Shown here piece by piece: positions 4,441 through 40,878 of a stretch of 64,000 nucleotides of DNA. The position numbers and the translations under genes are program-made. Source of the stretch: Solirubrobacteraceae bacterium (lineage in GTDB: Bacteria > Actinomycetota > Thermoleophilia > Solirubrobacterales > Solirubrobacteraceae). The notes under the pieces are model-generated. The model ran no database searches and had not been told where the DNA came from. It was given only the letters and a program-made list of their open reading frames with translations. Location: NCBI GenBank assembly GCA_034664295.1, contig JAXDHV010000014.1:1-64000 (forward strand), read 5' to 3'. Position 1 is the stretch's first letter; every line of letters starts with the position of its first letter.

Positions 4441-4574
4441 AAGCGACGGACGGGCGAACCGGACACGGCCGGGGCGCGTCTCCAGGACCCGCAGCTGTCT
4501 CGGCGATGCCTGCCAGTCTTGCAGCGGGCGTGCCCGATCTCCCGAGAACCGCCTCGGGCCGCCTCGGCCCGGGC

Positions 4575-6572: not shown

Positions 6573-6612
6573 GCCGAGCGCCCGATCACGTCGACCCGGC
6601 GACCCGCGGTCC

Positions 6613-10740: not shown

Positions 10741-10791
10741 CGACTTGCAGCCTAACTCGAAACGTCCGACTATCCTCGCCGCAGACCGCCT

Positions 10792-13405: not shown

Positions 13406-13406
13406 C

Positions 13407-14288: not shown

Positions 14289-14330
14289 GCCGTCAAGCCA
14301 AGCACAATCACCCGAGGACCGGCGATCCTC

Positions 14331-16411: not shown

Positions 16412-16702
16412 CGGCCGCGCGGGCCGCTGCGCCCGCTCTCCCGCCCCGCCGTGGTCTCTGGGTCCCGCTTGCGGCACTCGACGGTCGGACGCCGACCGGC
16501 GGCGGCTCCAGGCGCGTGAGAACCGTGAGCCGACGACGATCTCCCCACGCCCGTGCAGTGTGCGGAGAGCCGCAGGCGTTCGGCCGACGGGGCTCCGTGG
16601 TTGCGGTCGATGTCACCACGAAGATCTCTGTGCGCCAGTGAGTGGGATGCGCAATAATCGCCGCGACCAGGGTTGACCCAGCTCAGTTGGGAGGCAGACG
16701 AA

Positions 16703-16849
16703 GTGAGCGGTGCGAGTGGTGATGAGGCAGCGGTCGCTGCCGCGGAGGATTCGCCCGCAGAGAGCCTCCCGTCCGACGCGCAGGAACTTGCCGACGCGCA
16801 GCCGGAGCCGGATTCCCGCGTGACGCCAGACCCACCGCCGGCGCCATGA
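16703..16849 (+). CDS. small acidic protein (48 aa), hypothetical
   Basis: GTG start with a GGGAGG Shine-Dalgarno 8 nt upstream. Its stop overlaps the lysozyme ATG (ATGA). Composition is D/E/A/P-rich. Confidence 0.3.
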   Translation: MSGASGDEAAVAAAEDSPAESLPSDAQELADAQPEPDSRVTPDPPPAP

Positions 16850-17520
16850 AGATCAGCCCTGCGGGTGTCGCCCTGATCAAGGAGTTCGAGGGTTTCACCA
16901 ACGGCGGTCTTCCCTACAAGGACATGGTCGGGGTGTGGACGATCGGCTACGGCCACACCGAGGGAGTCGGACCGAGCAGTCCGCGGCTGACCGAGAAGCA
17001 GGCGAGTGCCCTGCTCGCGAGGGACCTCGACGCAAAGTACGGGCCGCCGGTGAACGCGATCGGCGTGTCACTCACGCAACCGCAGTTCGACGCCCTCGTG
17101 TCATTTGTGTACAACGTAGGGCCGGGCGGCGTCGATTCCTCGACCCGCGTCGGACAGGCGCTGCGGGCGAAGAACTGGCAGGCCGCGGCGGACGGACTGC
17201 TCGCGTGGAACAAGGCCGGTGGAGCTCCGGTCGCCGGGTTGACCCGCCGGCGGCAGGCCGAGCGGGCGCTGTTCCTATCGGTGTCCGATCCGCTTCCCGG
17301 CTATCGCGACGACGAGCGGGCTTGGATCCGGGAGTACGACGAGCTCCAGCGAACCGGCCAGAACCCGGGCCGCCGCGGCGAGTTGCGCAGCGCGATGACC
17401 GCGCGACGCAAGGCGATCTGGCGCGCGGCGCAACCGAAGGCCGCCGGAGGCGACGGCAACGGCTGGACCGTCAACGCCCGCCGCGGCCGCTATGCGTCAC
17501 TGCTCGCAAGAAGCGCCTAG
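16846..17520 (+). CDS. GH24 (T4/phage-type) lysozyme with novel C-terminal domain
   Basis: ISPAGVALIKEFEGF...VWTIGYGHT catalytic region. About 70 C-terminal residues are shared with the M15 peptidase at 18129..18812. Confidence 0.85.
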   Translation: MKISPAGVALIKEFEGFTNGGLPYKDMVGVWTIGYGHTEGVGPSSPRLTEKQASALLARDLDAKYGPPVNAIGVSLTQPQFDALVSFVYNVGPGGVDSSTRVGQALRAKNWQAAADGLLAWNKAGGAPVAGLTRRRQAERALFLSVSDPLPGYRDDERAWIREYDELQRTGQNPGRRGELRSAMTARRKAIWRAAQPKAAGGDGNGWTVNARRGRYASLLARSA

Positions 17521-17550
17521 AACGTCTGCCACCAGCCCGAGGGATGACGC

Positions 17551-18076
17551 ATGAAGAAGCTGAGCACTGACGACCGAGCAGCCGCGATGACCGAGGGGGT
17601 CAGCTTCCATGACGTGCCGATGCCACGGGGACTGGCGTTCGCGATCTCGCACATCGAGTCGCACGGCGCACCCGTCTCGATCTTCTCGGCCGACCGGACG
17701 GTCGCGGCGATCACGGCGCACAACAAGGAGTTCGGGACGACCCTCCACGCCCAGCAGTACCTCTTCGACAACCAGGGCAAGCCCGGGTTCAACCCGGCGA
17801 ATCCGCCGACTCGAACGAGCCACTGCCTACAAGAACACAAAGGGACAGGTCATTTCAGTCGGTGGCAGGATCCCGTGGTACTCGCTCGGGATCGATCTCT
17901 GCGACAGGCGCAAGGTCGAGGACGTCAGCTCGTTCCTGCGGGTCCCACACTCGCTCGGCTACGAATTCGTCCAGCCGTACACGTCCGGTGCGGAGAAGCA
18001 TCATGTGATCAGCGTCAAGAGCCCGATCGCGACGCTCGAGCACTGGAACGTGATCTCCAGGAACCGGACCGCATGA
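17551..18076 (+). pseudogene. hypothetical protein split by a frameshift near 17830-17845
   Basis: Frame A (17551..about 17835) and frame B (about 17838..18076) both look coding. Junction falls in a locally AT-richer stretch. Confidence 0.45.
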
Positions 18077-18128
18077 CCGGCACGCGTCTTCCCCGATCGG
18101 CAGGAGCAGGCGATATGGTGGGCTCACG

Positions 18129-18812
18129 ATGACGCCGGTCGAGATCCACGGTCGTGCCCTCGGTGTCGAGCGCAACGGGGTGTTCAACAGCTCGAACACG
18201 AGCCCCATCCCCGGCGGCCGGCTCTGGCCCGAGGCCGCCCTGACGTGGACGGCGATGCGCAGCGACTATGTCGCCCAGGGCGGCGATCCCGCCGCATGCG
18301 CGCCCGGCGGTCCGCAGTCGAGCGCACGGACGTTCGCCCAGCAGGTCGCACTCAAGGCTGAGTGGGTGAGCCGGGGTCGTCCGCAGAACGCCGCGACGCC
18401 GGGGACGAGCAACCACGGCTGGGGGATCGCCGTCGACTGCCCGAGCTCCCACGCCCAAGCCTGGATCCTGACCCACGGCGCCAACTACGGCTGGTCGCAC
18501 GACGAAGGCGCACTGGTCGGCGAGCCGTGGCACTTCCGATACGTGGGAGCGTCCGCGGCGAGGCTGCGCCAGCTGACGCGAGATCCGTGGGCCGGCTACA
18601 CCGCGAGCGAGCGCCGCTGGATCACCGAGTACGACCGGCTGGCGAAGGATCAGACGAACGCCCAACGGCGCGGAGTTCTCCGCCGGGTCATGACCGAGCA
18701 GCGCAAGCGGATCTGGAAGGCAGCGCAACCGACCGAATCCGGCGGAGACGGCAAGGGCTGGACGGGTGGCCGCACCCGCCGATACAGATCACTCCTCGCA
18801 CGAACAACCTGA
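18129..18812 (+). CDS. peptidase M15 (VanY/LAS-type zinc D,D- or L,D-peptidase) with the same C-terminal domain as the lysozyme
   Basis: SNHGWGIAVD (SxHxxGxAxD) and EPWHFRY (ExxH) motifs. The C-terminus ERRWITEYDRL...RKRIWKAAQP...GGDGKGWT...RYRSLLART is about 55% identical to the lysozyme tail. Confidence 0.8.
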   Translation: MTPVEIHGRALGVERNGVFNSSNTSPIPGGRLWPEAALTWTAMRSDYVAQGGDPAACAPGGPQSSARTFAQQVALKAEWVSRGRPQNAATPGTSNHGWGIAVDCPSSHAQAWILTHGANYGWSHDEGALVGEPWHFRYVGASAARLRQLTRDPWAGYTASERRWITEYDRLAKDQTNAQRRGVLRRVMTEQRKRIWKAAQPTESGGDGKGWTGGRTRRYRSLLARTT

Positions 18813-18834
18813 GCATCAACGGGGGCATCATCAA

Positions 18835-19239
18835 ATGAACATCATCACCGGCCAACGCCCAGACCTGACTCCGGCGCAGCTCGTCTCGGGGATTCCGATC
18901 CTCGCCGAGCTGCTCCACTCCTTCGGGATCTACAACCTCTCCGTCAGCCAGCAGGATTCCCTCGCCCACGCCGCGACCTGGGCGCTGGCCCTGGTGGCCG
19001 GCGACACGATCCTCCGGGTCGGCCGTGGCGTCGCCACCTCGCGAGTGCAGGCCGCCGGAATAGCTGCCGGGGCCGGCGCGATGCCGGTTCTCCCGGTGAC
19101 ACCAGCCGCCGATCCGGCCGCGCCGGCCGGCGACGCGCTGCCCCAGACCGAGGACATCCCGTCCGACGCCCAGGAGTTCGCCGCTCCCCCGCCTGGCTCA
19201 CCGCCCGCCGTCGCACCGGTGGCGCCACCGCGCGCCTGA
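18835..19239 (+). CDS. small membrane protein, holin-like candidate
   Basis: 134 aa with one clear TM segment (ATWALALVAG) and a Pro/Ala-rich tail. It lies directly downstream of the two peptidoglycan hydrolases. Confidence 0.45.
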   Translation: MNIITGQRPDLTPAQLVSGIPILAELLHSFGIYNLSVSQQDSLAHAATWALALVAGDTILRVGRGVATSRVQAAGIAAGAGAMPVLPVTPAADPAAPAGDALPQTEDIPSDAQEFAAPPPGSPPAVAPVAPPRA

Positions 19240-19252
19240 GGGCCCTGGGACG

Positions 19253-20173
19253 ATGAGGAACGGATGGCAGTCGGTCTCCTACGAGACGTGGAGCGCGACC
19301 TGCGACACCCTCCACGCGCACACGCAGGTTCTCGGCAAGCTCGCCGTCGCCCTCGCGCCGCCCGAACCCCAACTCCAGCATGCCGCCCTGCGGCTGACCG
19401 CCCGCGGCTGGGAGACCGGCCCCCTGCCCGCACCCGGCGGCTCGGGTGCGCTGGTCGTCGCGCTCGACCTGCGCACCCACGAGGCGGTCGCCGAGCACAC
19501 CGGCGGCGGTGTCCGCCGCGTCGCGCTCACCCCGGACCGGCCGGTCGGCCAGGTGACACGTGACCTGCTCGCGGCCGTAGCCGAACTTTCCGGCCCGGTC
19601 ACGATCGACCCGACCCCCCAGGAGGTCCCGTGGACGGTCCCGCTCGACGAGGACGACCACCACGCCACCTATGACACCGACAAGGTCGCCTCGTACTTCG
19701 CCGCCGCGGCCCAGGCCGCCCTCGTCCTCGCCGCCTTCCGCGCGCCCTTTCGCGGGCGATCGACTCCCGTCAACGCCTGGTGGGGCTCCTTCGACCTCGC
19801 CGCCAACCTCTTCTCCGGCCTACCGGCCGAGCCGCCGGCCCCGGACTTCATCATGCGCAACTCGATGGACGTCCAAGAGGTCGCCGTCGGCTGGTGGCCG
19901 GGCGATCCGCGCTACGGAAAAGCCGCCTTCTACGGCTACACCCACCCCGCCCCCGCAGGGTTCGCCGGTGCCGAGCTCGCCCCGACCGAGGCCCGCTGGG
20001 AGGCAGCCCTCGGGGAATACGTCCTCGACTGGGACGACGTCTGCGCGAGCCCCGACCCCCACGCGTGCGCACTCGAGTTCGCCCGCTCGGTCTTCCACCA
20101 CGCGTGCACCGTTTGCAATTGGGATCCCGCCCTCTCGGCCACCGCCGACGCGATCCCGCCGCCCGTCGCCTGA
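19253..20173 (+). CDS. conserved hypothetical protein (DUF5996-like)
   Basis: ETWSATCDTLHAHTQVLGKL N-terminal block, typical of a widespread uncharacterised family. The family assignment is from memory. Confidence 0.5.
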   Translation: MRNGWQSVSYETWSATCDTLHAHTQVLGKLAVALAPPEPQLQHAALRLTARGWETGPLPAPGGSGALVVALDLRTHEAVAEHTGGGVRRVALTPDRPVGQVTRDLLAAVAELSGPVTIDPTPQEVPWTVPLDEDDHHATYDTDKVASYFAAAAQAALVLAAFRAPFRGRSTPVNAWWGSFDLAANLFSGLPAEPPAPDFIMRNSMDVQEVAVGWWPGDPRYGKAAFYGYTHPAPAGFAGAELAPTEARWEAALGEYVLDWDDVCASPDPHACALEFARSVFHHACTVCNWDPALSATADAIPPPVA

Positions 20174-20193
20174 CCGGCGCCCGACGACGAGCC

Positions 20194-20325
20194 CTAGTCG
20201 TCGTCGCTGTCGATGCCGAGCAGATCCTCGTCGGCGACCGGCAGGAGCGTCTCCGGATCCTCGTCGTCGAGCAGGTCGTCGGGGTCCAAGGCCTCGGCGT
20301 CGTCCCAGGCTTCTGAAGCCTCCAT
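20194..20325 (-). CDS. small highly acidic protein (43 aa), hypothetical
   Basis: MEASEAWDDAEALDPDDLLDDEDPETLLPVADEDLLGIDSDDD. No clear Shine-Dalgarno. Below the ORF-track size cut-off. Confidence 0.25.
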   Translation of the reverse strand: MEASEAWDDAEALDPDDLLDDEDPETLLPVADEDLLGIDSDDD

Positions 20326-20395
20326 GTCCGGAAGGATAGGCACCGTCCGACGAGTGTCAAGTCCGGCAACCACTCGGCAACGCCGACACTACGAC

Positions 20396-22372
20396 CTAGC
20401 GGCTGCCCGGTCCGTACACGGCGTAGCCGAGATCCCTGAAGAGGGCCCGCTCCCCGGCCAGGCAGCGAGCCGCCGTGAACGCCCGGAAGCCCGGGAAGAC
20501 GAACGTCGTCACGACCACCCACCCGGCCCGCGCCCTCGCCCGCACCGCCCCGCACGGCTCCTGCGCCCCGATCAACTCGAGCCGGTGCTGGAAGCGATCC
20601 CCGACCAGCGTCGCGACCGTCAGGTCGGCCATCGAGATCGTCGCCGACCCGTCGACGTAGCCGGGCTGGCGGTCAAACCAAGCCACCGGCCCGACGAACG
20701 GCGCGTCGGCGGCCGCGACCGACCGCCCGAGGAACCCGCCCGACCCCCACGCCAGGCCGAGCGCGAGCCCCAGCCCCGCGACGATCCCGACACCGGCCAG
20801 AGCAATCCGCCCGGGTCCCCCCCGGCCCACCAGTCCAGCCGCCAACGCCGCCGAGGCCCCGCCCGCCAGGCCGAGCACCAGCCACCCGGCCGGTGGCGTC
20901 TCGATCGACGTCGGCACGTACCTGCTCGCCCCCGCCAGGTTCACGACGAGGCCGGCGCCGAGCAGTCCGAGCGCAACCGTGCAACCCCTGCGACTCGCTC
21001 GCCCCAGCAGGCCGACCGCCACCCCCGCGGCCACCAGCACCGGCAGGACGTAGCGGTTCGTCGACGCCGTCAGCTCCCAGAGCCCGGGGTTCGTCGGTGC
21101 CCCGGTGACCGGCGCGCTCGCCCACCCCAGCAGACCCAAACCGACCGCCCCGCCCGCCAGGACGACGGGCCGCCGGCGGCTGACCAGCGCGCCGAGCAGG
21201 CCCCCCGCGAGGAGGATCCACGCGCCGCCGAGCTGCCATGTGTATGAGTCCCTGTAGATCTTCACCGGCCCATCGATCGTCGCCACCGGCCGCGACAGGA
21301 ACGACGGCTCGAGCGGCACGAGGAAGCTCGGGACCGGATCGCCGCCCCGCAGGCTGAGAAACGGCCACAGTGGCGAGCCGTGATCTAAGAAGTCACGCAC
21401 GTACCAAAGGCCGCCGAGGACCCCCGCCGCGACCACGGCCGGCCCGAGCCAGGCCGACATCCCGAGCAGCCGCCGCCGGTGCACCCACCCACCCGCCAGG
21501 AACACCAGCACCACCTCCGGCGCCACGGTCGTCTTCGTCCCGACCGCCAAGCCGCCCGCGAGCACGCCCGCCGCGAGCAGCCGCGGCCGCTCGATCGAGC
21601 ATGCGACCAGCGCTCCGCAGACCGCCAGCCAGCAGACGCCCGGCAGATCGGTTCCCGCGGTCGGGATCTGCTGGAGGAGGACCGGGACCGTTCCGAGGAC
21701 GCCCACGCAGAGGCCGCCGATCACGGCCGGGACGCGGAGCGCCCGGAGGCCGACCGATCCGGCCGCGAGCAGGAGGAGGTAGAGCATCGGGCTCCACAGG
21801 GTCGGCCCCGCGAACCCCCGCGAGATTCCCGCGATCCACGCGAGCGCCACCTCGTTGGTCAGGGGATAGCTCCCGAACGGGAGGTCGTAGCTCAGCGAGA
21901 CTGTCGATCCCGGCCGGCCGTTGCGGACCCACGCAGCCACGTCGTTGAGGTGGTACAGCGCCGCGTCGATTCCGATCGTCGGGTTCGCGATCAGCCACCC
22001 GCAGATCGCGACCCACCCGCCGGCGGCGGCTCCCCACGCGAGCCGCTCGGCCCGCGTTCGATCAGCCCACCATCCGGCCGCCGAAAGGCGCAGACCCGGC
22101 GGACGGGGACGGCCGGGGGCTGGCCCGGCGAGCGCGAGGCGGGTGAGCGCCCACGTGAGGATCGCTGCCCCCGCCAGCAGCCACGCCGACGATCCGAGCG
22201 AGAACAGACCCAGGCCGAGCGCCTCCAGCACCGCAAGCGACGTCGCGATCGGCGCGGCCGCGACGACGCGCACGAGGCCATCGCCCCCAAGTCGCCCAGC
22301 CACCCGCAGGCCGGTCGCGGCGAGCACGGCGATCGCGAGCACGAGGAGCACCTCGTGTCCTGCACCGCTCAC
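20396..22372 (-). CDS. large polytopic membrane protein, putative GT-C-fold glycosyltransferase (paralog 2)
   Basis: 658 aa. GTG start with a GGAGGG Shine-Dalgarno 8 nt upstream. Shares the conserved blocks of paralog 1 (YHLN, AWVRNGRPGS, YPLTNEV, GTKTT, SPLWP, LEPSFLSRP). Confidence 0.6.
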   Translation of the reverse strand: MSGAGHEVLLVLAIAVLAATGLRVAGRLGGDGLVRVVAAAPIATSLAVLEALGLGLFSLGSSAWLLAGAAILTWALTRLALAGPAPGRPRPPGLRLSAAGWWADRTRAERLAWGAAAGGWVAICGWLIANPTIGIDAALYHLNDVAAWVRNGRPGSTVSLSYDLPFGSYPLTNEVALAWIAGISRGFAGPTLWSPMLYLLLLAAGSVGLRALRVPAVIGGLCVGVLGTVPVLLQQIPTAGTDLPGVCWLAVCGALVACSIERPRLLAAGVLAGGLAVGTKTTVAPEVVLVFLAGGWVHRRRLLGMSAWLGPAVVAAGVLGGLWYVRDFLDHGSPLWPFLSLRGGDPVPSFLVPLEPSFLSRPVATIDGPVKIYRDSYTWQLGGAWILLAGGLLGALVSRRRPVVLAGGAVGLGLLGWASAPVTGAPTNPGLWELTASTNRYVLPVLVAAGVAVGLLGRASRRGCTVALGLLGAGLVVNLAGASRYVPTSIETPPAGWLVLGLAGGASAALAAGLVGRGGPGRIALAGVGIVAGLGLALGLAWGSGGFLGRSVAAADAPFVGPVAWFDRQPGYVDGSATISMADLTVATLVGDRFQHRLELIGAQEPCGAVRARARAGWVVVTTFVFPGFRAFTAARCLAGERALFRDLGYAVYGPGSR

Positions 22373-29082: not shown

Positions 29083-30384
29083 TCAGACGATCTTCGGCCG
29101 GTAGCGGACGAGCCGCGGGAGGCGCAGCAGCGCGCGCGGTGACCCGCGGACCTTGAAGCGGCGGCCGAGGATCGGACCGATCGGGGTGAGTCCGCGGGCG
29201 GCAAGATCGATCCAGTCCTTCCAGGAGCTCTCGATCGTCACGTCGGCAGTCGGCGCCTCGCCGGCGACGGGGCGGGCGGTGCTCGAGTCGATCAGGACGT
29301 GCCATGGGAGGGCATCGGTGAACCGCCACTGGATGCACAGCGGCCGGGCACCGGTACGGGTCGGGTCGACCGACGCGGCGACCGTGTCGAAGAAGAGGGC
29401 CTGAACCTCCGGCGTGATGTCCAGCGGCCGGTTCGGCTCACCGAGCACGCCGGCCGCGGTCAGGAGGATCACCCGCCGGGCGATCTCCTCGTCGCCGAGT
29501 GAGAAGTCGACCGGGAAGACCCCGCGGGGCATCTCCTCGACGGGGAAGCCGGCCGCCCGCCACTTGCTGCGGATCGAGCCGATCCCGAAGGCGTAGATGT
29601 CCTCGAGCTCGAACCCGTAGCACCGGGTGTACGAGCGGTCCCAGTTCGGGGGGACGAACACCCCGGCGACGTAGCGGAGGACCTCGGCCATCAACTCGGC
29701 GACCGCCGACTTGCACTCTTCCGACTGGGCGAAGCAGTCGGCCAGGGTCTTCACGCCGAAGCCGATGTGCCGCTGCTCGTCGAGTGAGACCATCGTCATC
29801 CCCTCGCTGAATCCCGGCATCCCCCCCGACTTGGCGAAATGTGCCTCGATGAAGTGCTGGCCGGGCTGGGCGAGGGTCGCCTCCACCACCATGTGGTAGA
29901 GGGCGATCGCCTGGGCGAACTTCGGCAGCGACCGGTCCCTCCGGAGCTCGTCGGCCATCCGATCGAGCCGCTCGAAGACCCGCCGGTATCCCCAGCTCTG
30001 ATCGACTCGGCTGGCGGCGACCGTCTCGGCGATGCCGCCGGTCGAGCCGATCACGTCGGTGAAGAAGCGATGGAAGAAGACCGCGTGGCGCGCCTCGTCG
30101 ACCTGCTGGGTCGTCAGGAAGTACTTCTGATCGAGCGTCGGCGCCGCGTCGATGTACGGCGCCAGACTGACGGCGACCGAGTCCTCGCCGGCCAGGAACA
30201 TCGAGTACAGCCAGACCGCCGACTTCCGCTGGATCTCGCTCAGGCCGGCCCACCCGGCGACGTCTTGCGTGAAGTCGATCGTCGTCGCCCGCCACTGGCC
30301 GTGCTGCTCCCAACGGCGGTAGAGATCGACGTATGAGATCGCGTCGACAGGGCTCGACTGGCCCGGATGAAGCTCTACGGCCAT
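29083..30384 (-). CDS. R2-like (ferritin-like di-metal carboxylate) oxidase fused to a C-terminal SCP2 sterol-carrier domain
   Basis: R2/R2lox metal ligands in order: E (MFLAGEDSV), ExxH (DEARHAVFF), E (MVVEATLAQ), ExxH (DEQRHIGFG). The C-terminal about 120 aa (…KDWIDLAARGLTPIGPILGRRFKVRGSPRALLRL) is SCP2-like. Confidence 0.7.
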   Translation of the reverse strand: MAVELHPGQSSPVDAISYVDLYRRWEQHGQWRATTIDFTQDVAGWAGLSEIQRKSAVWLYSMFLAGEDSVAVSLAPYIDAAPTLDQKYFLTTQQVDEARHAVFFHRFFTDVIGSTGGIAETVAASRVDQSWGYRRVFERLDRMADELRRDRSLPKFAQAIALYHMVVEATLAQPGQHFIEAHFAKSGGMPGFSEGMTMVSLDEQRHIGFGVKTLADCFAQSEECKSAVAELMAEVLRYVAGVFVPPNWDRSYTRCYGFELEDIYAFGIGSIRSKWRAAGFPVEEMPRGVFPVDFSLGDEEIARRVILLTAAGVLGEPNRPLDITPEVQALFFDTVAASVDPTRTGARPLCIQWRFTDALPWHVLIDSSTARPVAGEAPTADVTIESSWKDWIDLAARGLTPIGPILGRRFKVRGSPRALLRLPRLVRYRPKIV

Positions 30385-33021: not shown

Positions 33022-34392
33022 ATGGCTCCAGACCCGACGATCTTCAAGGCGTACGACATCCGCGGCCTCTACGACACGCAGATCGACGGGAACGTCGCTC
33101 AGCAGATCGGGAGGGCGTTCGCGATGGTGTTGAGCGAGCTGTCGGGCAAGGAGACCGAGGACCTCAGGGTCGGAATCGGACACGACATGCGCCTGAGCGC
33201 GCCAGGCCTTGCGTGGCGCTACCGGGTGGGACTGATGAAGGAGTGCGTGACGGTCATCGACATCGGCGAGGTCGGCTCGGAGATGCTCTACTACCTCGTG
33301 GGGTCGCGCGAGCTCGACGGTGGCCTGATGTGCACGGCATCCCACAACCCGGCGGAGTACACCGGAGCGAAGCTGGTCCGGGAGGGCGCGCTCGCCCTGT
33401 CGGGCGACACCGGCATCCAGGACATCCGGAAGATCATCGAGTCGGGGACGCTGGGGGCGGCGCGGAACAAGGGCGCCCACGAGGAGCTCGACATCTACGA
33501 GGAGTTCCAGGCGGCGGCGCTCGGCTTCGTCGACGCGGACGCGATCAAGGGTCTTAAGGTCGTCGTCGACGGCGGCAACGGGATGGCCGGACCGATGGTC
33601 GGACCGATCCTGCGGGGCCTGGACATCGAGCTGATCGAGACGTACTTCACCCCGGATGGGAACTTCCCCGGCCACGAGCCGAACCCGCTGCTGCCGGAGA
33701 ACCGGCAGTTCGTGATCGACCAGGTGCGCGAGCACAAGGCCGACCTGGGGATCGCGTGGGACGGGGACGCCGACCGGTGCTTCTTCATCGACGAGACTGG
33801 CCGCTTCGTGGACGGCGACTTCCTGACGGCGCTGCTGGCCGAGTCGCTGCTGGTCAAGAATCCGGGCGAGGCGATCCTCTACGACGTCCGGGCGAGCCGG
33901 GCCGTCGCCGACACCGTGCGGGTGGCCGGAGGGACGCCGCACATGAACCGGGTCGGCCACGCGTTCTTCAAGTCGCGGATGCGCGACGAGGCCTCCCTGT
34001 TCGGCGGCGAGGTCTCGGGTCACTACTACTTCCGCGACTTCTACTGCGCGGACTCGGGGACGCTTCCGGCCCTCCTGATCCTCGAGCTGGTCGCCAAGGC
34101 GGGACAGACGCTCTCTGAGCTGCTCGAGCCGTACCGGTCGACGTACTTCATCTCCGGTGAGATCAACAGCGAGGTCTCCGACGCCGAAGGACGGATCGAG
34201 GCGATCGCCGCGAAATACGTCGACGCCCGGGTGACCCGGCTGGACGGGATCTCGATCGACTATGACGACTGGCACTTCAACGTGCGCTCGTCGAACACCG
34301 AGCCGCTGCTGCGGCTCTGCCTGGAATCCCTCGTCTCCGAAGCGGACATGGAGCGCCGTCGGGACGAGGTCCTCGAGCTGATCAGGTCGTGA
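33022..34392 (+). CDS. manB: phosphomannomutase/phosphoglucomutase
   Basis: Active-site CTASHNPAEYTGAKL and typical alpha-D-phosphohexomutase domains. Confidence 0.9.
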   Translation: MAPDPTIFKAYDIRGLYDTQIDGNVAQQIGRAFAMVLSELSGKETEDLRVGIGHDMRLSAPGLAWRYRVGLMKECVTVIDIGEVGSEMLYYLVGSRELDGGLMCTASHNPAEYTGAKLVREGALALSGDTGIQDIRKIIESGTLGAARNKGAHEELDIYEEFQAAALGFVDADAIKGLKVVVDGGNGMAGPMVGPILRGLDIELIETYFTPDGNFPGHEPNPLLPENRQFVIDQVREHKADLGIAWDGDADRCFFIDETGRFVDGDFLTALLAESLLVKNPGEAILYDVRASRAVADTVRVAGGTPHMNRVGHAFFKSRMRDEASLFGGEVSGHYYFRDFYCADSGTLPALLILELVAKAGQTLSELLEPYRSTYFISGEINSEVSDAEGRIEAIAAKYVDARVTRLDGISIDYDDWHFNVRSSNTEPLLRLCLESLVSEADMERRRDEVLELIRS

Positions 34393-35411
34393 CGGGGACG
34401 GCGGAGCCGCAGGCAACCGCCGCGGCCGCCGGCATCCACTGCCTTGCGGTTCCGACTCCGTTCGCGGTGGGGGCGGTCAACCTCTACGTGATCGAGGACG
34501 ACCCGCTGACGCTGGTCGACGCGGGCCCGAACTCCGGGGTGGCGCTCGACGACCTCGAACGCGGGCTCGAGGGGCTGGGCCACAGGATCGAGGACATCGG
34601 GCTGCTCGTTCTGACCCACCAGCACATGGACCACATCGGCTTGGCGGCGATCATCGCCCGCCGCTCGGGCGGCGAGGTCGCGGCGCTCGACCGGCTCGCG
34701 CCGTACCTCGAGCGCTTCGGCGAGGACATGGAGCTCGACGACCGCTTCGCCGCCCGCCAGCTCCTGCGACACGGCATCCCGCAGGACGTCGTCCACGCAC
34801 TGCGGGCAGTCTCGGCCAGCTACCGGGCGTGGGGGTCGAGTGTCACCGTCAGCCGGCCGCTGGCTGCCGGGAGCGTTCTCCGCCTGCGGGACAGGTCGCT
34901 CGAGGTCCTCCACCGGCCGGGCCACAGCCCGAGCGACACCGTCTTCTGGGACGCCGAGCGGCGGATCCTGATCGGCGGCGACCACCTGATCGGCCACATC
35001 TCGTCGAACCCGCTGCTGACCCGACCGCTGGGTGACACCGGCGAGGAGGACGCGGCATCGCCGAGGCCACAGGCGCTGGTGTCCTACATCGAGTCGCTGA
35101 AGGCGACCCGGGAGATGGAGATCGAGGTCATCCTGGCCGGCCACGGCCAGCCGGTCGTGGGTCACGTCGCGCTGATCGACGAGCGGCTGCGGCTGCACGA
35201 GCGCCGCGCCCAGAAGATCTACGACCTGGTCGGCGAGCGTCCGAAGACCGCCTACGAGATCTCGCAGGCGCTGTGGGGGACGGTCGCCGTAACGCAGGCC
35301 TACCTGACTCTCTCGGAGGTCCTCGGCCACGCGGATCTCCTGCTCAACCGAGGTTTGCTGGTCGAGACGGTGAAGGACGGCCTGGCGACGTTCGAGGTCG
35401 CGGTCGCCTAG
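34389..35411 (+). CDS. MBL-fold metallo-hydrolase
   Basis: THQHMDHIG metal-binding motif. GTG start overlaps the manB stop (GTGA). Confidence 0.75.
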   Translation: MTGTAEPQATAAAAGIHCLAVPTPFAVGAVNLYVIEDDPLTLVDAGPNSGVALDDLERGLEGLGHRIEDIGLLVLTHQHMDHIGLAAIIARRSGGEVAALDRLAPYLERFGEDMELDDRFAARQLLRHGIPQDVVHALRAVSASYRAWGSSVTVSRPLAAGSVLRLRDRSLEVLHRPGHSPSDTVFWDAERRILIGGDHLIGHISSNPLLTRPLGDTGEEDAASPRPQALVSYIESLKATREMEIEVILAGHGQPVVGHVALIDERLRLHERRAQKIYDLVGERPKTAYEISQALWGTVAVTQAYLTLSEVLGHADLLLNRGLLVETVKDGLATFEVAVA

Positions 35412-35438
35412 CCCGGCTTCGACCGCAGGAATCCGACG

Positions 35439-35460
35439 GTCTGTGACCAACTTCACAGAC
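35439..35460. promoter_or_regulatory. perfect inverted repeat GTCTGTGA-n6-TCACAGAC upstream of nos
   Basis: Lies 28 nt after the MBL stop and about 155 nt before the nos ATG. There is no U-tract, so an operator is more likely than a terminator. Confidence 0.3.
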
Positions 35461-35615
35461 AGGGTCGCCGCGGTGCCTTAGGTTCGCCTCATGAGGACAC
35501 CGACAGCGAGCGTCGTGAGCACCCACCGGGGGTCCGATGGCGGGGCGGCTTCGCAGCCGCGGGCCTCGGCTTCCGGGCGCGTGGACTCTCGCTCGGACAA
35601 GGGGCTTTGAGAATC

Positions 35616-36845
35616 ATGACCGCAGCAGCAACAGCAACAGCGACAGCGACAGCAACAGCACCAGGGCCAGAGCACCCGCACGCGCTGGACTTCGCCGAGG
35701 GCCGCGACGACGGGTCCCCGAGCATCGAAGAGGTCCGCGGGTTCTTCGAGCAGTATCGAGAGCACACGAAGATGCCGGCCGAGGAGTACGTGAGGCGCCT
35801 CGCCGATGTCGAGGCCGAGATCGCGATTCACGGCACCTACGTCCACACCACCGACGAGCTCACCGTGGGTGCGCGGCTGGCCTTTCGCAATCATCTGCGC
35901 TGCATCGGCAGGCCGTACTGGCGCTCGCTCGCCGTCCGCGACTGCCGCCACCTGACCTCGGCCGACGAGATCGGCCGCGGTTGTATCGAGCACCTCGAAA
36001 CGGCCGCCAACCGAGGAAAGGTCCGGCCGGTCATCTCCGTTTTCGCGCCGGACGGTCCGCGCGGCCGCGGCCCTCGCGTACGCAACCGCCAGCTGGTCTC
36101 CTACGCCGGATATCGTCTCCCCGACGGATCCGGTCTGGGAGATCCGCAGGGCATCAAGTTGACCGAGCTGGCTCAGAGCCTCGGCTGGTCCCCCGGCACG
36201 CCAGGCCGCTTCGATCTCCTGCCGTTGGTCATCGAGACCCCGGACGGACGGCTCGGTGTCCACGAGATCCCGCCGAGTGCCGCACGCGAGGTCCCGATCT
36301 CTCACCCGACGATTCCGGCGCTCTCCGAGTTGGGGCTGCGGTGGTATGGGTTCCCAACGGTCAGCGACATGGCCCTGTCGATCGGCGGTATCACCTATCC
36401 GCTGGCTCCGTTCAGCGGATGGTACGTCGCGCCTGAGATAAGCGCCCGTGACTTCACCGATCCCCACCGGTACAACCTCCTCCCGCAGATCGCCTCCGCG
36501 TTCGGGCTGGACACCAGGACACGAGGGTCGCTGTGGCAGGACCGCGCGATGATCGAGCTGACTGCGGCGGTCCTGTGGTCCTTTGAGCGCGACGGCATGC
36601 GGATCGACGATCACCACACGGCGAGCGACCGGTTCCACCGTTGGACGCTGGCCGAGAGCCGCCACGGACGAGAGGTCGACGCCGAATGGGCATGGATGAT
36701 TTCACCGCTATCGCCGTCTGCGACGCCTGTGTTTCACCAGACCTACCCCGCACGCCAGCGGTGGCCGAACTTCGTGCGGTTGCCCGGGATCGATGACGAC
36801 ATGCCCAAGGCAACCTGTCCGTACCATGGGCCCGGGCGGACGTGA
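35616..36845 (+). CDS. nos: nitric oxide synthase oxygenase (bacterial NOS)
   Basis: Aligns block by block with Bacillus/Deinococcus NOS: YVHTTDEL, heme-thiolate RCIGRPYW, HIETAANRGKVRPVISVF, LVSYAGY, GDPQ, FDLLPL, EVPISHP, WYGFPTVSDM, GGITYPLAPFSGWY, DHHTASDRF, WMISPLSPSATPVFHQ. The N-terminus carries a (Thr-Ala)n tract. Confidence 0.9.
   Translation: MTAAATATATATATAPGPEHPHALDFAEGRDDGSPSIEEVRGFFEQYREHTKMPAEEYVRRLADVEAEIAIHGTYVHTTDELTVGARLAFRNHLRCIGRPYWRSLAVRDCRHLTSADEIGRGCIEHLETAANRGKVRPVISVFAPDGPRGRGPRVRNRQLVSYAGYRLPDGSGLGDPQGIKLTELAQSLGWSPGTPGRFDLLPLVIETPDGRLGVHEIPPSAAREVPISHPTIPALSELGLRWYGFPTVSDMALSIGGITYPLAPFSGWYVAPEISARDFTDPHRYNLLPQIASAFGLDTRTRGSLWQDRAMIELTAAVLWSFERDGMRIDDHHTASDRFHRWTLAESRHGREVDAEWAWMISPLSPSATPVFHQTYPARQRWPNFVRLPGIDDDMPKATCPYHGPGRT
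35620..35665. repeat. hexanucleotide microsatellite (ACAGCR)n inside the NOS N-terminus
   Basis: gcagcagca acagca acagcg acagcg acagca acagca encodes AAATATATATATA. In-frame unit length is 6 bp. Confidence 0.75.
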
Positions 36846-36867
36846 GCATCGGCTCCGGCAGGCAGTT

Positions 36868-38178
36868 CTAGGCAGGACCCGTCTCGCCGGCGGCGACGGG
36901 CGCTGGGCTCGTGACCCGCAGGCTCAGCAGCTGCTCGACTCGACGGGCTGTCGCGTGGATGCGCTCGGGATGCTCGCCTGGGGTCAGCCGTTCCCGGACG
37001 GAGAGCAGTCCGCACATGTCGAACCCCGCCGGGGCGGCCGCCACGGCATCGCCGACCGCGGCGAGCGGATAGTAGGCGCGGAAGGCGGGATCCTGCGCGG
37101 CCGGGCCCGCCGAGTTCTCCGCGACGATGCCGGTCCGGTAGACGAACCTGATGCACGTGGCCATCCGGCCCGGGTGGCGTTGTCGCGCGTAGCTCGCAGC
37201 CTGATCGGGGTCATGCAGCAGGGCGAGCAGGTGGAGCTCGACGAGATCGATCGCGTGGACGTCGAGGATGTTGCGATAGACGTGGCCACCGCTGATCCGG
37301 GTACTGAACTCCACGACGTGATACCGCCCGTCCCGACCGCGCCGAAGCTCGACGTTGAACAGGGCGTGAACGAGATCGAGTGAGGCCACGAGTGCCGCCA
37401 CGACCCCGACGATCTCCTCCTCGGAGCGGTCGTCTGGCAGCGGCAGCGTGTACAGATCCTCCTCGAAGCACGGGCCCGGGCCGACGTACTTTGCGTGAAT
37501 CCCGCCGAGGTGGAAGTGGCCATCGATCACCACGCCATCGCAGGTCACCTCGTCGCCGGGCAGGTACTCCTCGATCAGGGCCCAGACGTCCGGGAGGTCG
37601 TCGTAGAGGTAATAGACGCGTGAGTTCGCAAAGGCCCGGATGCCCGACAGGGCCGCTCGAACGGCGCGATGATCGCTGGCAAGCACGACGTGGGCGCTGT
37701 TGCCCCCTCGCGTCGGCTTGACGATCCAGGGGCCATCGAGATCGGCGAGCGCGGCGATCGCCGCCTCCTCGTCACGAACCTCCAGGAACGAGGGCGAGGG
37801 TATCGGGTGCTTGGCCAGATGCAGACGCTGGAGGCGCTTGTCCCGGGCGATCGCGTCGGTGGCCGGGCGCGCCCAGGGGACCCCGGCGCGGGCGTTCGCC
37901 TCTCCGACGGCGACGATATCCGCTTCGAGGTAGGTCACCGCGCAGCGGGCGCCGGACTCGTGGATCCGCCGCTCGGTCGCCTCGGCGAGGTCTTCGGTCG
38001 TCGACCCCGAATCGATCAGCGTCACCGTGGCGAACCGCGGGTCGGCGGTTGCCGCCGCCGACTCGCTGACGAGGTGGATCTCCAACCCAAGGCGTGACAT
38101 GCACTCCAGGTGGTCGAATCTCGGGCCGAGACTGTGCCTCATGACGAGGACGACGGGTGTGTTAGTCAGCGCCGACAT
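36868..38178 (-). CDS. ATP-grasp domain ligase (paralog 1)
   Basis: PWIVKPTRGGNSAHV, LIEEYLPGDEV and FNVEL motifs of the ATP-grasp fold. Confidence 0.75.
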   Translation of the reverse strand: MSALTNTPVVLVMRHSLGPRFDHLECMSRLGLEIHLVSESAAATADPRFATVTLIDSGSTTEDLAEATERRIHESGARCAVTYLEADIVAVGEANARAGVPWARPATDAIARDKRLQRLHLAKHPIPSPSFLEVRDEEAAIAALADLDGPWIVKPTRGGNSAHVVLASDHRAVRAALSGIRAFANSRVYYLYDDLPDVWALIEEYLPGDEVTCDGVVIDGHFHLGGIHAKYVGPGPCFEEDLYTLPLPDDRSEEEIVGVVAALVASLDLVHALFNVELRRGRDGRYHVVEFSTRISGGHVYRNILDVHAIDLVELHLLALLHDPDQAASYARQRHPGRMATCIRFVYRTGIVAENSAGPAAQDPAFRAYYPLAAVGDAVAAAPAGFDMCGLLSVRERLTPGEHPERIHATARRVEQLLSLRVTSPAPVAAGETGPA

Positions 38179-39493
38179 CGGGAGTCTGCCTTTCGGTTGA
38201 GAGCCGTGCGGCCATGACGATGAGCGCCACGGCGGTGAAGCCGCCGATCAGACAGACCAGCGGGAGTGCGCTCGAGGCATGCGCGTAGATCAGCGCACCG
38301 CCCGCGGGACCGAGCGCGAACCCGAGCGTCTGGGCTGCCACGAGATAGGACTGATAGCGCGCGACCCTGCCGTCGGGAGCGATGTCGGCCATCGCGTTGC
38401 CTGCGACGGGCGCCAGCAGCATCTCCCCGAAGGTCCAGACCAGGACCCCGCCGGCCACCACGACGGTCGCGCCGGACGCCAGGCATGCCGCCATCCCCGC
38501 GGCGATCAGTCCGGCTCCAAGTCCGAGCGGTACGCGCGGAGACCCGCGACGGGTGAGCGAGCTGATCGGAAGCTCTGCGGCGATCACGATGACCGCGTTG
38601 AGGGCGAGCAGGGCGCCGAAGAGACGCGGGGTGTGTCCGGCCGCGGCGAGGTGCAAGGGCAGGGTCGCGGTGTGCTGGGCATAGACGGCCGCGACGCAGA
38701 AGAAGGCGCTCAGCATGAGCGGGAGCGTGATCGCCGGACCTGCACGGTCCGTCCGGCCCGGCCGAGCAGCGTCGGCCGCGCCCGGGTCGGGGTTGCCCGG
38801 GTCCCACGCGCCGCCGTCGGCCGCGTCGGCCTCGAGTGCACCTGCGGTCGGCGGAGGGCCGGGCGGGGTCCGAGGGAGGCCGACCAGGATCACGAGCGCG
38901 AAGGCGGCGCTGGTCACCGCGTCCACGACGAACAGCGCCCCGTAGGAGTGGGCGGCGATCAAGCCGGCGGTGAGGCCGGCGATCGCAGCGCCGACGTTGA
39001 GGGCCAGACGAAAGAGCGCAAACAGGGGAACGCGCTCCTCCGGGCGGCTGAAGTCGACGAGCAGGGCGCTGGCGGCCGGCACGTAGGATTGGGTGCAGAA
39101 GCCCGACAGACAGACCGCCGCGATGACGGTCGGCCGAGTCGGCGCCAGGGCGACGCACGCAAGGCTCACGGCCGACGCCGCGGCTGACGAGACGAGCGCC
39201 GCGCGCCGGGAGAAGCGGTCGGCGATCCAGCCTCCGGCGAGCGAACCGAGCATCCCGGCGGCGGCGATCGCCGCCAGGATGACCGGCAGGCTGGCGAGCG
39301 CAATTGCCCGGCTCGTCAGGAAGAGAGTGGCGAACGTCGCGAAGTAGGACCCCATCCGGTTCACCAGGACGCCGGCCACGAGGATCCAGACGGGACGCGG
39401 GGCGGTGCGGAGGATCGTCACGACGGAGCGAAGCACCGGCTTCTCGCCGCCGTTCGCCGCCACGGTGGGGATCCGGCGAGGCCGGAGGGGCAT
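38162..39493 (-). CDS. MFS transporter
   Basis: 12 TM segments. Start/stop abut both ATP-grasp genes (TGAn ATG). Confidence 0.8.
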   Translation of the reverse strand: MPLRPRRIPTVAANGGEKPVLRSVVTILRTAPRPVWILVAGVLVNRMGSYFATFATLFLTSRAIALASLPVILAAIAAAGMLGSLAGGWIADRFSRRAALVSSAAASAVSLACVALAPTRPTVIAAVCLSGFCTQSYVPAASALLVDFSRPEERVPLFALFRLALNVGAAIAGLTAGLIAAHSYGALFVVDAVTSAAFALVILVGLPRTPPGPPPTAGALEADAADGGAWDPGNPDPGAADAARPGRTDRAGPAITLPLMLSAFFCVAAVYAQHTATLPLHLAAAGHTPRLFGALLALNAVIVIAAELPISSLTRRGSPRVPLGLGAGLIAAGMAACLASGATVVVAGGVLVWTFGEMLLAPVAGNAMADIAPDGRVARYQSYLVAAQTLGFALGPAGGALIYAHASSALPLVCLIGGFTAVALIVMAARLSTERQTPDVGAD

Positions 39494-40555
39494 TCACGGC
39501 TCCACGGAGAGCGCGCGCCCCGAGACGATCAGGTCGGCCTCGACGGCGTCGAGACGCGCGGCACACTCCTCCTGATCGGAGCCGGTGACGACGGCGAAGG
39601 CCAGCCGGGAGAGGTATTCGCGCGGAGGTAGCCTGAGCTCCTGACCGGGTTCGACGACGCTCTGAAATGACACAAGACCTGGATAGTCGGCATCTGGCCG
39701 CCGGAGTCGCACCTCCTGGATCGCTATGTCCGTCGTCGGATAGAAGAACCGGACCGCGGCAGCACCGCTCACGGCGGCGTGGATCTGAGGCGGCTCGCCC
39801 ATGGCGGCTTCGGCCGCGGCACGGCTGACGTCGACACCGAGCGCCAGCAGCCCGAGATAGGGGATCAGGTCGCCACCCAGGCGGCTGTTGAGCTCGATCA
39901 GGCGGGGACCCCTGGGCGTGAGGCGGAACTCGGTGTGGGTGACGACTCGGTCGAGGCCGACGAGGCGGTGTACACGGCTCACCTGGGCGAGTGCGCCATC
40001 CAAGCCGGCAGTGGGTCGGGGAGGAACGATGTGGCCGAGCTCCTCGAAGTACGGTGCGAGGCCGACGACCTTCTCGGCGACGACGAGCGGTGTCGTCACA
40101 CCCGCGACCGTGATCGAGTCGACGCTGTATTCGGGTCCTTCGAGGTACTCCTCGATCAATACGCCGTCGTAGGAGGAGACCGTCGCACCTATGCGGGCAC
40201 CCGCCGCCGCCAGGAAGGCGCCTGCGATCTCAGCCGGGTCGGAGACGCGAACGACGCCGGCACTACCTCCAAGTCCGCGGGGCTTGAGCACGATCGGGTA
40301 GCCGATCGCCTCCGCCGCGCGAACGGCGGCGGCCAGGTCATGGGCGACGGCGAATCGCACTCCGAGACCCTCGTGTTCGGCGAGCAGAGCCCGCAGCCTG
40401 GCCTTGTCCTTACACGTGCGAATCGCTTCGGAATCGCAATACGGCAAGCCGAGCTCGCCGGCCAGGTCGGCACACAGCTCCACGTAGCGCTCGTCCCAGG
40501 TGAGCAGCCCGGTCGCGCCGGACTCGGCCGCGAGGTCCCTCGCACTCCGCGACAC
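39494..40555 (-). CDS. ATP-grasp domain ligase (paralog 2); true N-terminus probably extends to about 40790
   Basis: GYPIVLKPRGLGGSAGV and LIEEYLEGPEYSVD motifs. In-frame upstream sequence encodes the expected pre-ATP-grasp strand (RALLLVGSGYQAY) but contains no ATG/GTG/TTG. Confidence 0.7.
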   Translation of the reverse strand: MSRSARDLAAESGATGLLTWDERYVELCADLAGELGLPYCDSEAIRTCKDKARLRALLAEHEGLGVRFAVAHDLAAAVRAAEAIGYPIVLKPRGLGGSAGVVRVSDPAEIAGAFLAAAGARIGATVSSYDGVLIEEYLEGPEYSVDSITVAGVTTPLVVAEKVVGLAPYFEELGHIVPPRPTAGLDGALAQVSRVHRLVGLDRVVTHTEFRLTPRGPRLIELNSRLGGDLIPYLGLLALGVDVSRAAAEAAMGEPPQIHAAVSGAAAVRFFYPTTDIAIQEVRLRRPDADYPGLVSFQSVVEPGQELRLPPREYLSRLAFAVVTGSDQEECAARLDAVEADLIVSGRALSVEP

Positions 40556-40798
40556 ATCCGCCCGGTCGTCGAAGTCTGCCTCGACGTGCCAGGTGACGTA
40601 TGGACGCTGCCAGGAGAGGTCCCGCTCGGCTAACAGTGCGACGGGAAAGCGCTCGGCGATCGATCGAAGGCTGTACTCCCGATATGCCTGGTAGCCGCTA
40701 CCGACCAGGAGCAGCGCCCGGCTCGTGCCTGGCAGCGCATCCGCCCCTATGGTCGTTCCTCCGAGTGCATGCAGATGTCTCGCCAGCGGCTCGTCGTG

Positions 40799-40845
40799 CT
40801 CCTTGAGGACGCCGCATTATACGGTCGACGGCCCCGACTTGGCAA
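40799..40845 (-). promoter_or_regulatory. sigma-70-type promoter (-35 TTGCCA, 18 bp, -10 TATAAT) plus AAGGAG Shine-Dalgarno
   Basis: On the minus strand TTGCCA is at 40845..40840, TATAAT at 40821..40816 and AAGGAG at 40804..40799. The -10 box contains the in-frame TAA that caps the ATP-grasp reading frame. Confidence 0.5.
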
Positions 40846-40878
40846 GACTGAGTCTCATCACTTGGTAGCCTTGAGTGA

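Follow-up and report, generated by a model that had tools for sequence, protein, structure and literature searches.

In the 64-kb stretch of Solirubrobacteraceae DNA whose first lines are given above (contig JAXDHV010000014.1, hereafter the window), a gene for a nitric oxide synthase (NOS) oxygenase-domain protein, nos, stands next to a cassette of two ATP-grasp ligase genes, AG2 and AG1, with a gene for a transporter of the major facilitator superfamily (MFS) between them. We consider it probable that nos and the AG2-MFS-AG1 cassette form one four-gene biosynthetic unit, which would make a small exported peptide built around an oxidised arginine nitrogen. This reading comes chiefly from the neighbours of AG1 in other genomes, most of which have a heme N-hydroxylase and a cupin where NOS is found here. 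Six genes were called at 33.0-40.9 kb from the open reading frame (ORF) listing and Pfam, all of them as named in the original prediction; the four genes of the proposed unit are:

35616-36845, + strand: nos, NOS oxygenase-domain protein (ATG at 35616, in-frame TTG at 35607; Pfam NO_synthase, 424 bits)
36868-38178, - strand: AG1, ATP-grasp ligase of the L-amino-acid-ligase type, the signature gene of the cassette (Pfam ATP-grasp_4)
38162-39493, - strand: MFS transporter, presumed exporter (Pfam MFS_1, 130 bits)
39494-40750, - strand: AG2, second ATP-grasp ligase (Pfam ATPgrasp_N, ATP-grasp_4 and LAL_C2)

The stop codons of nos and AG1 face each other across 22 bp, the AG2/MFS junction is an abutting TGA-ATG, and MFS and AG1 overlap by 17 nt, which bears out the earlier description of an ATP-grasp/MFS/ATP-grasp operon convergent with nos. 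The closest public relative of the window is an uncultured Solirubrobacterales metagenome-assembled genome (MAG), L007, with 92% identity in AG1 and 88% in NOS, and a second MAG, L006 (ENA MAG contig_2510), is about 80-86% identical. Both are syntenic with the window over a phosphomannomutase/phosphoglucomutase (PMM/PGM) gene, a metallo-beta-lactamase (MBL)-fold gene, nos, AG1, MFS, AG2 and an ABC transporter. In L006 (9935-14895), PMM, NOS and AG1 each look split into two frames, probably by long-read indel errors rather than as pseudogenes.

AG1 neighbourhoods and the place of NOS

AG1 belongs to a tiny family: in a profile search of 1.84 billion representative proteins, about 20 clusters (50% identity) scored above 400 bits, and beyond these the scores fell off steeply. 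About 45 AG1-family loci were fetched and their neighbours scored by tblastn, clustering and Pfam; AG1s at least 49% identical to that of the window make up its close clade. The closest relatives with an informative upstream flank all lie in operons of the type YqcI-cupin-AG2-MFS-AG1 or YqcI-cupin-AG1-MFS, in which YqcI stands for a YqcI/YcgG protein. The former type is found in Umezawaea (L018), Jatrophihabitans (L090), L087, L117 and L118, and the YqcI-type AG2-MFS-AG1 arrangement is also present in L009, whose contig ends within the cupin gene; the latter is found in Nocardiopsis (L002, L010, L011) and in L089. The window cassette is orthologous, by gene order and 50-68% identity, to the uncharacterised YqcI-cupin-AG2-MFS-AG1 operons (in L117, AG1 is 68%, MFS 67% and AG2 62% identical). 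It fits their AG2-MFS-AG1 order with tight or overlapping junctions, seen in L018, L087, L090, L117, L118 and L119, and the MFS gene is kept between the two ligase genes in these six loci as well as in L007 and L006. Absent from the window are the YqcI heme N-hydroxylase and the 3His/Glu cupin that are encoded upstream in the related operons. These two proteins are fused into a single ORF twice, in Paenibacillus polymyxa (L017, 8958-10010) and in an actinobacterial metagenome contig (L118, 192-1391), a Rosetta-stone hint that both act together. Every informative AG1 locus of the close clade has an adjacent N-oxygenase.

Similar neighbours are present in more distant AG1 clades. In Sorangium and Hyalangium (L015, L016), a true SznF homologue (E = 6e-104 to PDB 6M9S) is followed by AG1 and MFS, and in many Streptomyces (about 40% identity) an AG2-like ligase and AG1 occur with a hydrazine-synthetase set of two Lys/Orn N-monooxygenases, a cupin, a DAO-type flavoenzyme and a 710-aa MetRS-like protein. 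In the informative neighbourhoods, the AG1 family is thus constantly associated with N-O and N-N enzymes, which supports the earlier proposal that NOS is tied here to two ligases and an exporter in an uncharacterised, probably N-nitroso, N-N or N-oxidised pathway. Neighbours of other kinds were a methyltransferase and an unidentified protein in a further AG1 clade, arginase in one Bacillus locus, and, in L012, L013 and L020, a sulfotransferase-like protein that gave no informative PDB or NCBIfam match. The small cupin of the YqcI operons was considered as a split-off SznF cupin on the strength of a pairwise E value of 4e-4, but its profile matches generic cupin dioxygenases (quercetinase, acireductone dioxygenase) and is not SznF- or ChmM-like, so the likeness to SznF is kept as an analogy only. 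In Umezawaea tangerina (L018, 1526-5182), genes for a CreE-like flavoprotein and an AMP-binding ligase lie divergently upstream of the YqcI-cupin-AG2-MFS-AG1 operon; the flavoprotein is 38% identical to one in Kitasatospora azatica described below, and no nitrosuccinate lyase was seen in this Umezawaea locus.

YqcI and the cupin are missing in only two lineages of the close clade, and both have an adjacent NOS: the Solirubrobacterales of the window and K. azatica (L005). In K. azatica, nos (7604-8776), MFS (8773-10008) and AG1 (10001-11278) are co-directional and overlap end to end, and an AG2-MFS pair lies 2 kb downstream of them. Since the two proteins are missing exactly where NOS adjoins the cassette, NOS has displaced YqcI and the cupin. 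The two NOS proteins are only distantly related: they share 46% identity, each is about number 70 of 119 when ranked from the other, and in the sampled tree they join at the root; the K. azatica AG1, in turn, nests among the YqcI-type AG1s (neighbour-joining tree, no bootstrap support). Taken together, this argues that NOS was recruited independently in the two lineages. The chance of two NOS adjacencies in about 10 lineages is about 3e-5, a rough figure that assumes one NOS per genome of about 5000 genes. In the window itself, tblastn found no YqcI, cupin, SznF, CreE or CreD homologue anywhere in the 64 kb, which leaves NOS, the immediate neighbour of the cassette, as the only arginine oxidase available.

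The surroundings of the K. azatica genes are also rich in nitrogen chemistry. Upstream of nos (3771-7225), a CreE-like flavoprotein is encoded together with a nitrosuccinate lyase, which scores 805 bits as an NCBIfam equivalog (cutoff 650), and downstream (13234-21278) are AG2, MFS, AMP-binding and carrier protein (PCP) genes, followed by those for an alpha/beta hydrolase, a CN-hydrolase, an uncharacterised 258-aa protein and an SDR. Set beside the published accession order of AzpD, AzpE, AzpI and AzpK of alazopeptin biosynthesis (PMC11705231, PMC11973848), the block looks like a part or a close neighbour of the alazopeptin (azp) diazo cluster. Its place in a probable diazo cluster strengthens the reactive-nitrogen theme.

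Seen from the NOS side, the pairing is restricted to particular lineages. None of AG1, AG2 and the cassette MFS is present at 26 metagenomic NOS loci (52-69% identity), six of which have more than 5 kb of flank. In the nearest NOS outgroup, P0078 (73%), nos comes directly after nitrile hydratase genes, and in the outgroup P0081 (68%) the order is nos-ThiF-(T_hemolysin-like)-MFS-HMG-CoA-reductase/APH, with a GH3 amido-synthetase nearby (the two outgroup loci are L120, 870-3792, and L121, 3828-15632). Such cassette-free homologues at 52-73% identity indicate that the pairing is not a general NOS property. The comparison across genomes for which the original prediction had called supports the link, with NOS beside AG1 in exactly the two lineages without YqcI and cupin, though not at these other NOS loci.

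The NOS protein and the two ligases

The window NOS (409-412 aa, depending on the start) matches NO_synthase PF02898 with 424 bits against a cutoff of 22.7 over profile positions 6-355 of 362, has no reductase domain, and matches solved eNOS and bacterial NOS structures with E = 1e-94. RCIGR contains the heme-thiolate Cys (Cys96, counted from the ATG) and GWYVAPEIS the Glu that binds arginine, both aligned to the eNOS motifs; the predicted reaction is the conversion of arginine to nitric oxide (NO) and citrulline. The enzyme had been taken for an unambiguous NOS with all the Bacillus-type blocks, and domain, RCIGR and substrate Glu agree with this, but it is not fully canonical: the proximal heme Trp of W-R-N-x-x-R-C, which stacks on the heme and hydrogen-bonds the thiolate, is replaced by Phe90 (window 35883-35885). 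The Phe motif, AFRNHLRCIGRP, is present in the window, P0075/L007, P0076 and L006, while Trp is found in all 115 other NOS compared; K. azatica keeps it. The residue after CIGR is likewise Pro instead of Leu only in this cassette-linked clade (window, L007, P0076 and L006). Convergent substitutions common to both cassette-linked NOS lineages were sought and none was found, the Trp-to-Phe change being confined to the clade of the window. At the 5' end of nos (35622-35665), a GCAACA/GCGACA hexanucleotide run encodes (Ala-Thr)n, and the N-terminal ~38 residues do not align with the relatives; in these, the start of NOS appears to correspond to about window residue 38-40.

AG1 and AG2 are paralogues, as had been proposed, but distant ones: they share 28% identity over 294 aa (E = 4e-11). 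For both, the best solved relatives (phmmer against PDB) are the L-amino-acid ligases 3VOT (BL00235) and BacD, and the AF2 model of AG1 (pLDDT 90.6) finds 3VOT as the best fold (TM 0.79-0.87), followed by BacD and RizA. Their identity to characterised L-amino-acid ligases (the BacD, RizA and MboC/MboD group) is 16-20%. Neither protein reaches a curated NCBIfam cutoff; the best NCBIfam match of AG2 is the ATP-grasp half of PRK02186. Both are far below the cutoffs of the primary-metabolism ATP-grasp families (cyanophycin synthetase, RimK, Ddl, PurK/PurT and biotin carboxylase), with 18-25 bits against a cutoff of 850-877 for the cyanophycin synthetase profile. The two enzymes are therefore best regarded as putative L-amino-acid ligases for which dipeptide formation is predicted, and the alternative raised with the original prediction, that they belong to a known family of primary metabolism, finds no support. 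K154, E203/E204, N275, E277, E290, R294 and G297/G298 are invariant in the AG1 family. The MFS transporter is presumed to act in export.

The start of AG2 had to be placed by comparison. No ATG, GTG or TTG start exists upstream of 40555 (- strand), and the start codon is apparently an ATA at 40748-40750 (-), 6 nt after GGAGGA, the next canonical start being 195 nt downstream. In the alignment, L007 also has ATA at this site and L006 has ATG (6-7 nt after GGAGGA), and a 1-nt indel just upstream of it in L007 breaks the frame, so that the region beyond is not coding. Since there is no upstream start either, AG2 spans 39494-40750 (418 aa), and the operon, previously drawn to 40790, had been made about 40 nt too long.

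The proposed pathway, its relatives and its rivals

From these gene functions we infer the following chemistry. NOS, reduced by an unlinked cellular reductase, would convert L-arginine through N-omega-hydroxy-arginine to NO and citrulline. AG1 and AG2 would ligate amino acids at the expense of ATP, and the resulting di- or tripeptide would either contain the oxidised arginine derivative or capture NO-level nitrogen as an N-nitroso or N-N group, and the product would be exported by the MFS pump. An arginine-derived N-oxidised or N-N small peptide is the best reading of the product. As the species that couples NOS to the ligases, we lean slightly towards NO-level nitrogen, giving an N-nitroso or N-N end product, over free N-hydroxy-arginine, because wherever NOS is found the cupin has gone along with YqcI, which would make sense if NOS alone did both steps.

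The locus can be classed as a variant both of biosynthetic loci with an NOS and of ATP-grasp peptide cassettes that deal with N-oxidised amino acids. To our knowledge, the only established pathway roles of actinobacterial NOS are in thaxtomin, rufomycin and 8-azaguanine biosynthesis. In these systems (TxtD/TxtE, RufN/RufO and PtnF), as in the window, an NOS oxygenase lies beside biosynthetic and export genes; the window, however, has no P450, nonribosomal peptide synthetase (NRPS) or GTP-cyclohydrolase, its NOS has two ligases as partners, and Phe replaces the proximal Trp. The absence of a P450 partner, already pointed out in the original prediction, holds for the 26 genes scanned with Pfam at 26.5-56.6 kb, and NOS without a P450 has a precedent in PtnF, which donates nitrogen for the N-N bond of the 8-azaguanine triazole (PMC7109123). 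Literature searches for an NOS/ATP-grasp pairing found nothing relevant, and the original prediction likewise knew of none.

YqcI/YcgG proteins such as AglA, GntA, DcsA and ChmN are thiolate-heme arginine/guanidine N-hydroxylases, and ChmN has been proposed as a replacement for the diiron domain of SznF-like enzymes (PMC12866846, PMC11177257). The product of DcsA is N-hydroxy-arginine, and the N-hydroxyguanidine is often retained in YqcI-pathway products such as argolaphos, miharamycin and guanitoxin (PMC8976061, PMC12866846, PMC11177257). In the argolaphos cluster, the PRK02186-type ATP-grasp ligase AlpC adjoins the YqcI enzyme AlpD (PMC8976061); AG2 is of the same NCBIfam type as AlpC. The YqcI pathways (AlpC/AlpD, the latter being AglA, DcsA/DcsG and ChmN/ChmM) thus resemble the window in using ATP-grasp ligation, with an arginine-guanidine oxidation that is known for them and proposed for the window, whereas the window has NOS in place of YqcI and is without cupin, phosphonate, NRPS and cycloserine genes.

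Other relatives combine N-O or N-N chemistry with ligases in a similar manner. Operons of oxygenase-cupin, ATP-grasp and efflux genes, as well as MetRS-like systems with ATP-grasp, were predicted in silico in 2010 by Iyer, Aravind and colleagues (PMC2922099). The Sorangium and Hyalangium loci, with AG1 directly after the homologue of SznF (the streptozotocin enzyme) and before MFS, are of that operon type, and their logic of arginine N-hydroxy/N-nitroso chemistry followed by ligases and a pump may be likened to that of the window, which has, however, no heme-oxygenase-like diiron/cupin protein and an AG1 only about 45% identical to theirs. By gene content, the clusters that hold the AG1 relatives at about 40% identity resemble the fuscazine cluster with its Lys N-monooxygenase/cupin/flavin oxidase/MetRS-like set. 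In fuscazine biosynthesis, where a hydrazine synthetase is present, two ligases of the ATP-grasp type, FuzC and FuzH, assemble a tripeptide on an N-N-modified arginine, and FuzC takes arginine derivatives as the amine donor (PMC13149037). In contrast, no hydrazine machinery (Lys N-monooxygenase, cupin, flavin oxidase or MetRS-like protein) was found among the window genes scanned by Pfam. Finally, bacilysin BacD, rhizocticin RizA and mangotoxin MboC/MboD match the window ligases in fold and as closest solved relatives, and a warhead enzyme, ligases and an exporter are the minimal logic common to L-amino-acid-ligase antibiotics (PMC13185094) and the window; the warhead enzyme is NOS in the window and belongs to a prephenate-derived, phosphonate or HDO pathway in those systems.

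Several points weigh against a single four-gene unit. In the window, nos converges on the cassette from outside its operon; it has an apparent CRP-type promoter of its own, whereas the cassette promoter looks like a constitutive sigma-70 one (see below); no cassette accompanies the NOS homologues of 52-73% identity, the two nearest outgroups among them; and window, L006 and L007 amount to a single lineage. In K. azatica, the NOS might work for the diazo pathway instead, given that its block lies in a probable alazopeptin cluster. As regards the chemistry, the small cupin is not specifically SznF-like at the profile level, NOS normally retains N-hydroxy-arginine and releases little of it, and we know of no way in which ATP-grasp ligases could use NO directly. 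In favour of the unit stands the Trp-to-Phe substitution, confined as it is to the cassette-linked NOS clade. The same substitution also tells against the view that the genes are coincidental neighbours, NOS being an ordinary protective or signalling NO source and the cassette an unrelated, possibly decaying one that has lost YqcI and cupin. The convergent orientation, the separate predicted promoters with the CRP-type box at nos, the varying contexts of the NOS clade elsewhere (nitrile hydratase; ThiF/MFS/GH3) and the 26 metagenomic NOS loci without a cassette would all suit such a coincidence. Nevertheless, we consider it improbable, since K. azatica has an independent nos-MFS-AG1 operon, every informative AG1 of the close clade has its adjacent N-oxygenase, the three cassette genes have all stayed intact, and the strong promoter before them has been conserved, in species about 8-20% diverged, and nos and cassette share a dip in G+C at third codon positions (GC3).

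Two further readings accept a functional link between NOS and the ligases. The unit could be the same with N-omega-hydroxy-L-arginine as the coupling species, NOS then acting mainly as an arginine N-hydroxylase like YqcI. AG2 and AG1 would lengthen hydroxy-arginine by one or two amino acids, and the resulting hydroxyguanidine di- or tripeptide would act as a Trojan-horse arginine or arginase antimetabolite; the cupin would be a tailoring step of the YqcI versions that is missing from the NOS versions. The frequent retention of N-hydroxyguanidine in the products of characterised YqcI pathways would agree with this, as would the shared PRK02186 type of AG2 and AlpC, the neighbour of the YqcI enzyme AlpD, and the use of arginine derivatives as amine donor by FuzC (PMC13149037); in addition, the replacement of Trp by Phe at the heme might affect the turnover of NOS. 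We nonetheless rate this reading as possible but rather unlikely: the cupin is obligatory, even fused, with YqcI and is lost with it in both NOS lineages, which an optional tailoring step fits less well, the K. azatica NOS keeps its Trp, and the small release of N-hydroxy-arginine by NOS, mentioned above, tells against it too. Still less probable than coincidence, in our view, is that AG1 and MFS are a self-protection and export module that conjugates and expels reactive N-oxidised amino acids leaked from NOS, YqcI, SznF or hydrazine pathways. AG1 and MFS do travel together across very different N-N pathways, and the K. azatica pair lies inside the probable diazo cluster. By analogy, one may also point to AzsJ/AzsK (azaserine) and ThzJ/ThzK (thrazarine), unexplained and apparently dispensable ATP-grasp and MFS pairs in diazo clusters (PMC10445470, PMC12376268). 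However, many cassettes consist of an oxidase, two ligases and a pump only, with no other pathway to protect against, and two sequential ligases suggest assembly rather than detoxification. We retain the biosynthetic unit as the preferred reading, with a slight lean towards NO-level coupling.

A wider notion, put forward tentatively and with less confidence than the four-gene unit itself, is that NOS and YqcI plus cupin are interchangeable front ends of one pathway. If so, YqcI and cupin would be an unrecognised two-protein route from arginine to NO-level nitrogen, analogous to NOS; alternatively, a bacterial NOS with Trp-to-Phe at the heme would have been turned into a dedicated building-block enzyme. 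Either way, AG1-type ligases would mark an undescribed class of exported N-N/N-O peptides in Actinomycetota, Bacillota and Myxococcota. The role of most actinobacterial NOS enzymes is still debated, and the locus bears on that question as a compact, directly clonable four-gene system in which NOS replaces a heme N-hydroxylase and a cupin before two ligases and a pump. From the exchange of nos and yqcI-cupin one could learn what the YqcI-cupin pair makes; it could also bring to light a family of small N-oxidised or N-N peptides not described before, as candidate antimetabolites or metal binders, and show whether the Phe-for-Trp heme environment tunes NOS for biosynthesis.

Promoters, flanking genes and composition

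The regulatory elements and the remaining two of the six genes are:

40816-40845, - strand: TTGCCA-18-TATAAT, promoter of the AG2-MFS-AG1 operon, directly preceding AG2 and conserved in L007 and L006
40839-40860, - strand: block TGATGAGACTCAGTCTTGCCAA, invariant in the window, L007 and L006 while its surroundings vary
35442-35457, + strand: CRP-type palindrome TGTGACCAACTTCACA (TGTGA-N6-TCACA), upstream of nos, with its centre at about -41.5 from TAGGTT
35479-35484, + strand: TAGGTT, -10-like hexamer of a probable separate nos promoter (TAGGTT/TAGATT in L007 and L006)
33022-34392, + strand: PMM/PGM (manB; Pfam)
34389-35411, + strand: MBL-fold protein (Pfam), overlapping PMM by 4 nt

The near-perfect promoter noted at the outset is confirmed: no other site in the 64 kb, on either strand, agrees with the sigma-70 consensus at 11 or more of the 12 positions, and when the window was simulated with a first-order Markov model, just 0.5% of the runs contained a site this good. 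Block TGATGAGACTCAGTCTTGCCAA is a possible operator; it lies in the intergenic region shared with the divergent ABC transporter gene, and its palindrome AGACT-C-AGTCT overlaps the -35 hexamer. Upstream of nos, TGTGACCAACTTCACA is the only perfect TGTGA-N6-TCACA in the 64 kb and is kept in L007 and L006 while the intergenic flanks diverge, which suggests control of nos by cAMP and the CRP family; together with the TAGGTT hexamer, the conserved box indicates that nos is probably transcribed on its own.

The left flank of the unit is a glycosyltransferase/methyltransferase locus, and the right flank carries a metal-type ABC transporter (ABC_tran and ABC-3, divergent from the cassette), rpiB and pdxS. 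The G+C content of the window is about 71%. GC3 is 0.81 in nos and 0.80-0.87 over nos, AG1, MFS and AG2, compared with 0.91-0.93 in the PMM, MBL and ABC genes, which fits a four-gene island and argues against membership of manB and MBL. These two genes are present on the nos side as originally described, but they fall outside the unit: considered as cluster members, they proved to be conserved only in near relatives, to have a native GC3 of 0.93, to belong with the glycosyltransferase locus and never to occur with AG1 elsewhere. A link to the divergent metal ABC transporter, as in a metallophore system, was likewise discarded, its synteny being limited to near relatives and the transporter being absent from other cassettes. 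Within the glycosyltransferase locus, a 433-aa protein (29083-30384, - strand), kept in L007, has a ribonucleotide-reductase-small-chain-like (diiron) domain and, at its C-terminus, a domain of the SCP2/alkyl-sulfatase type.

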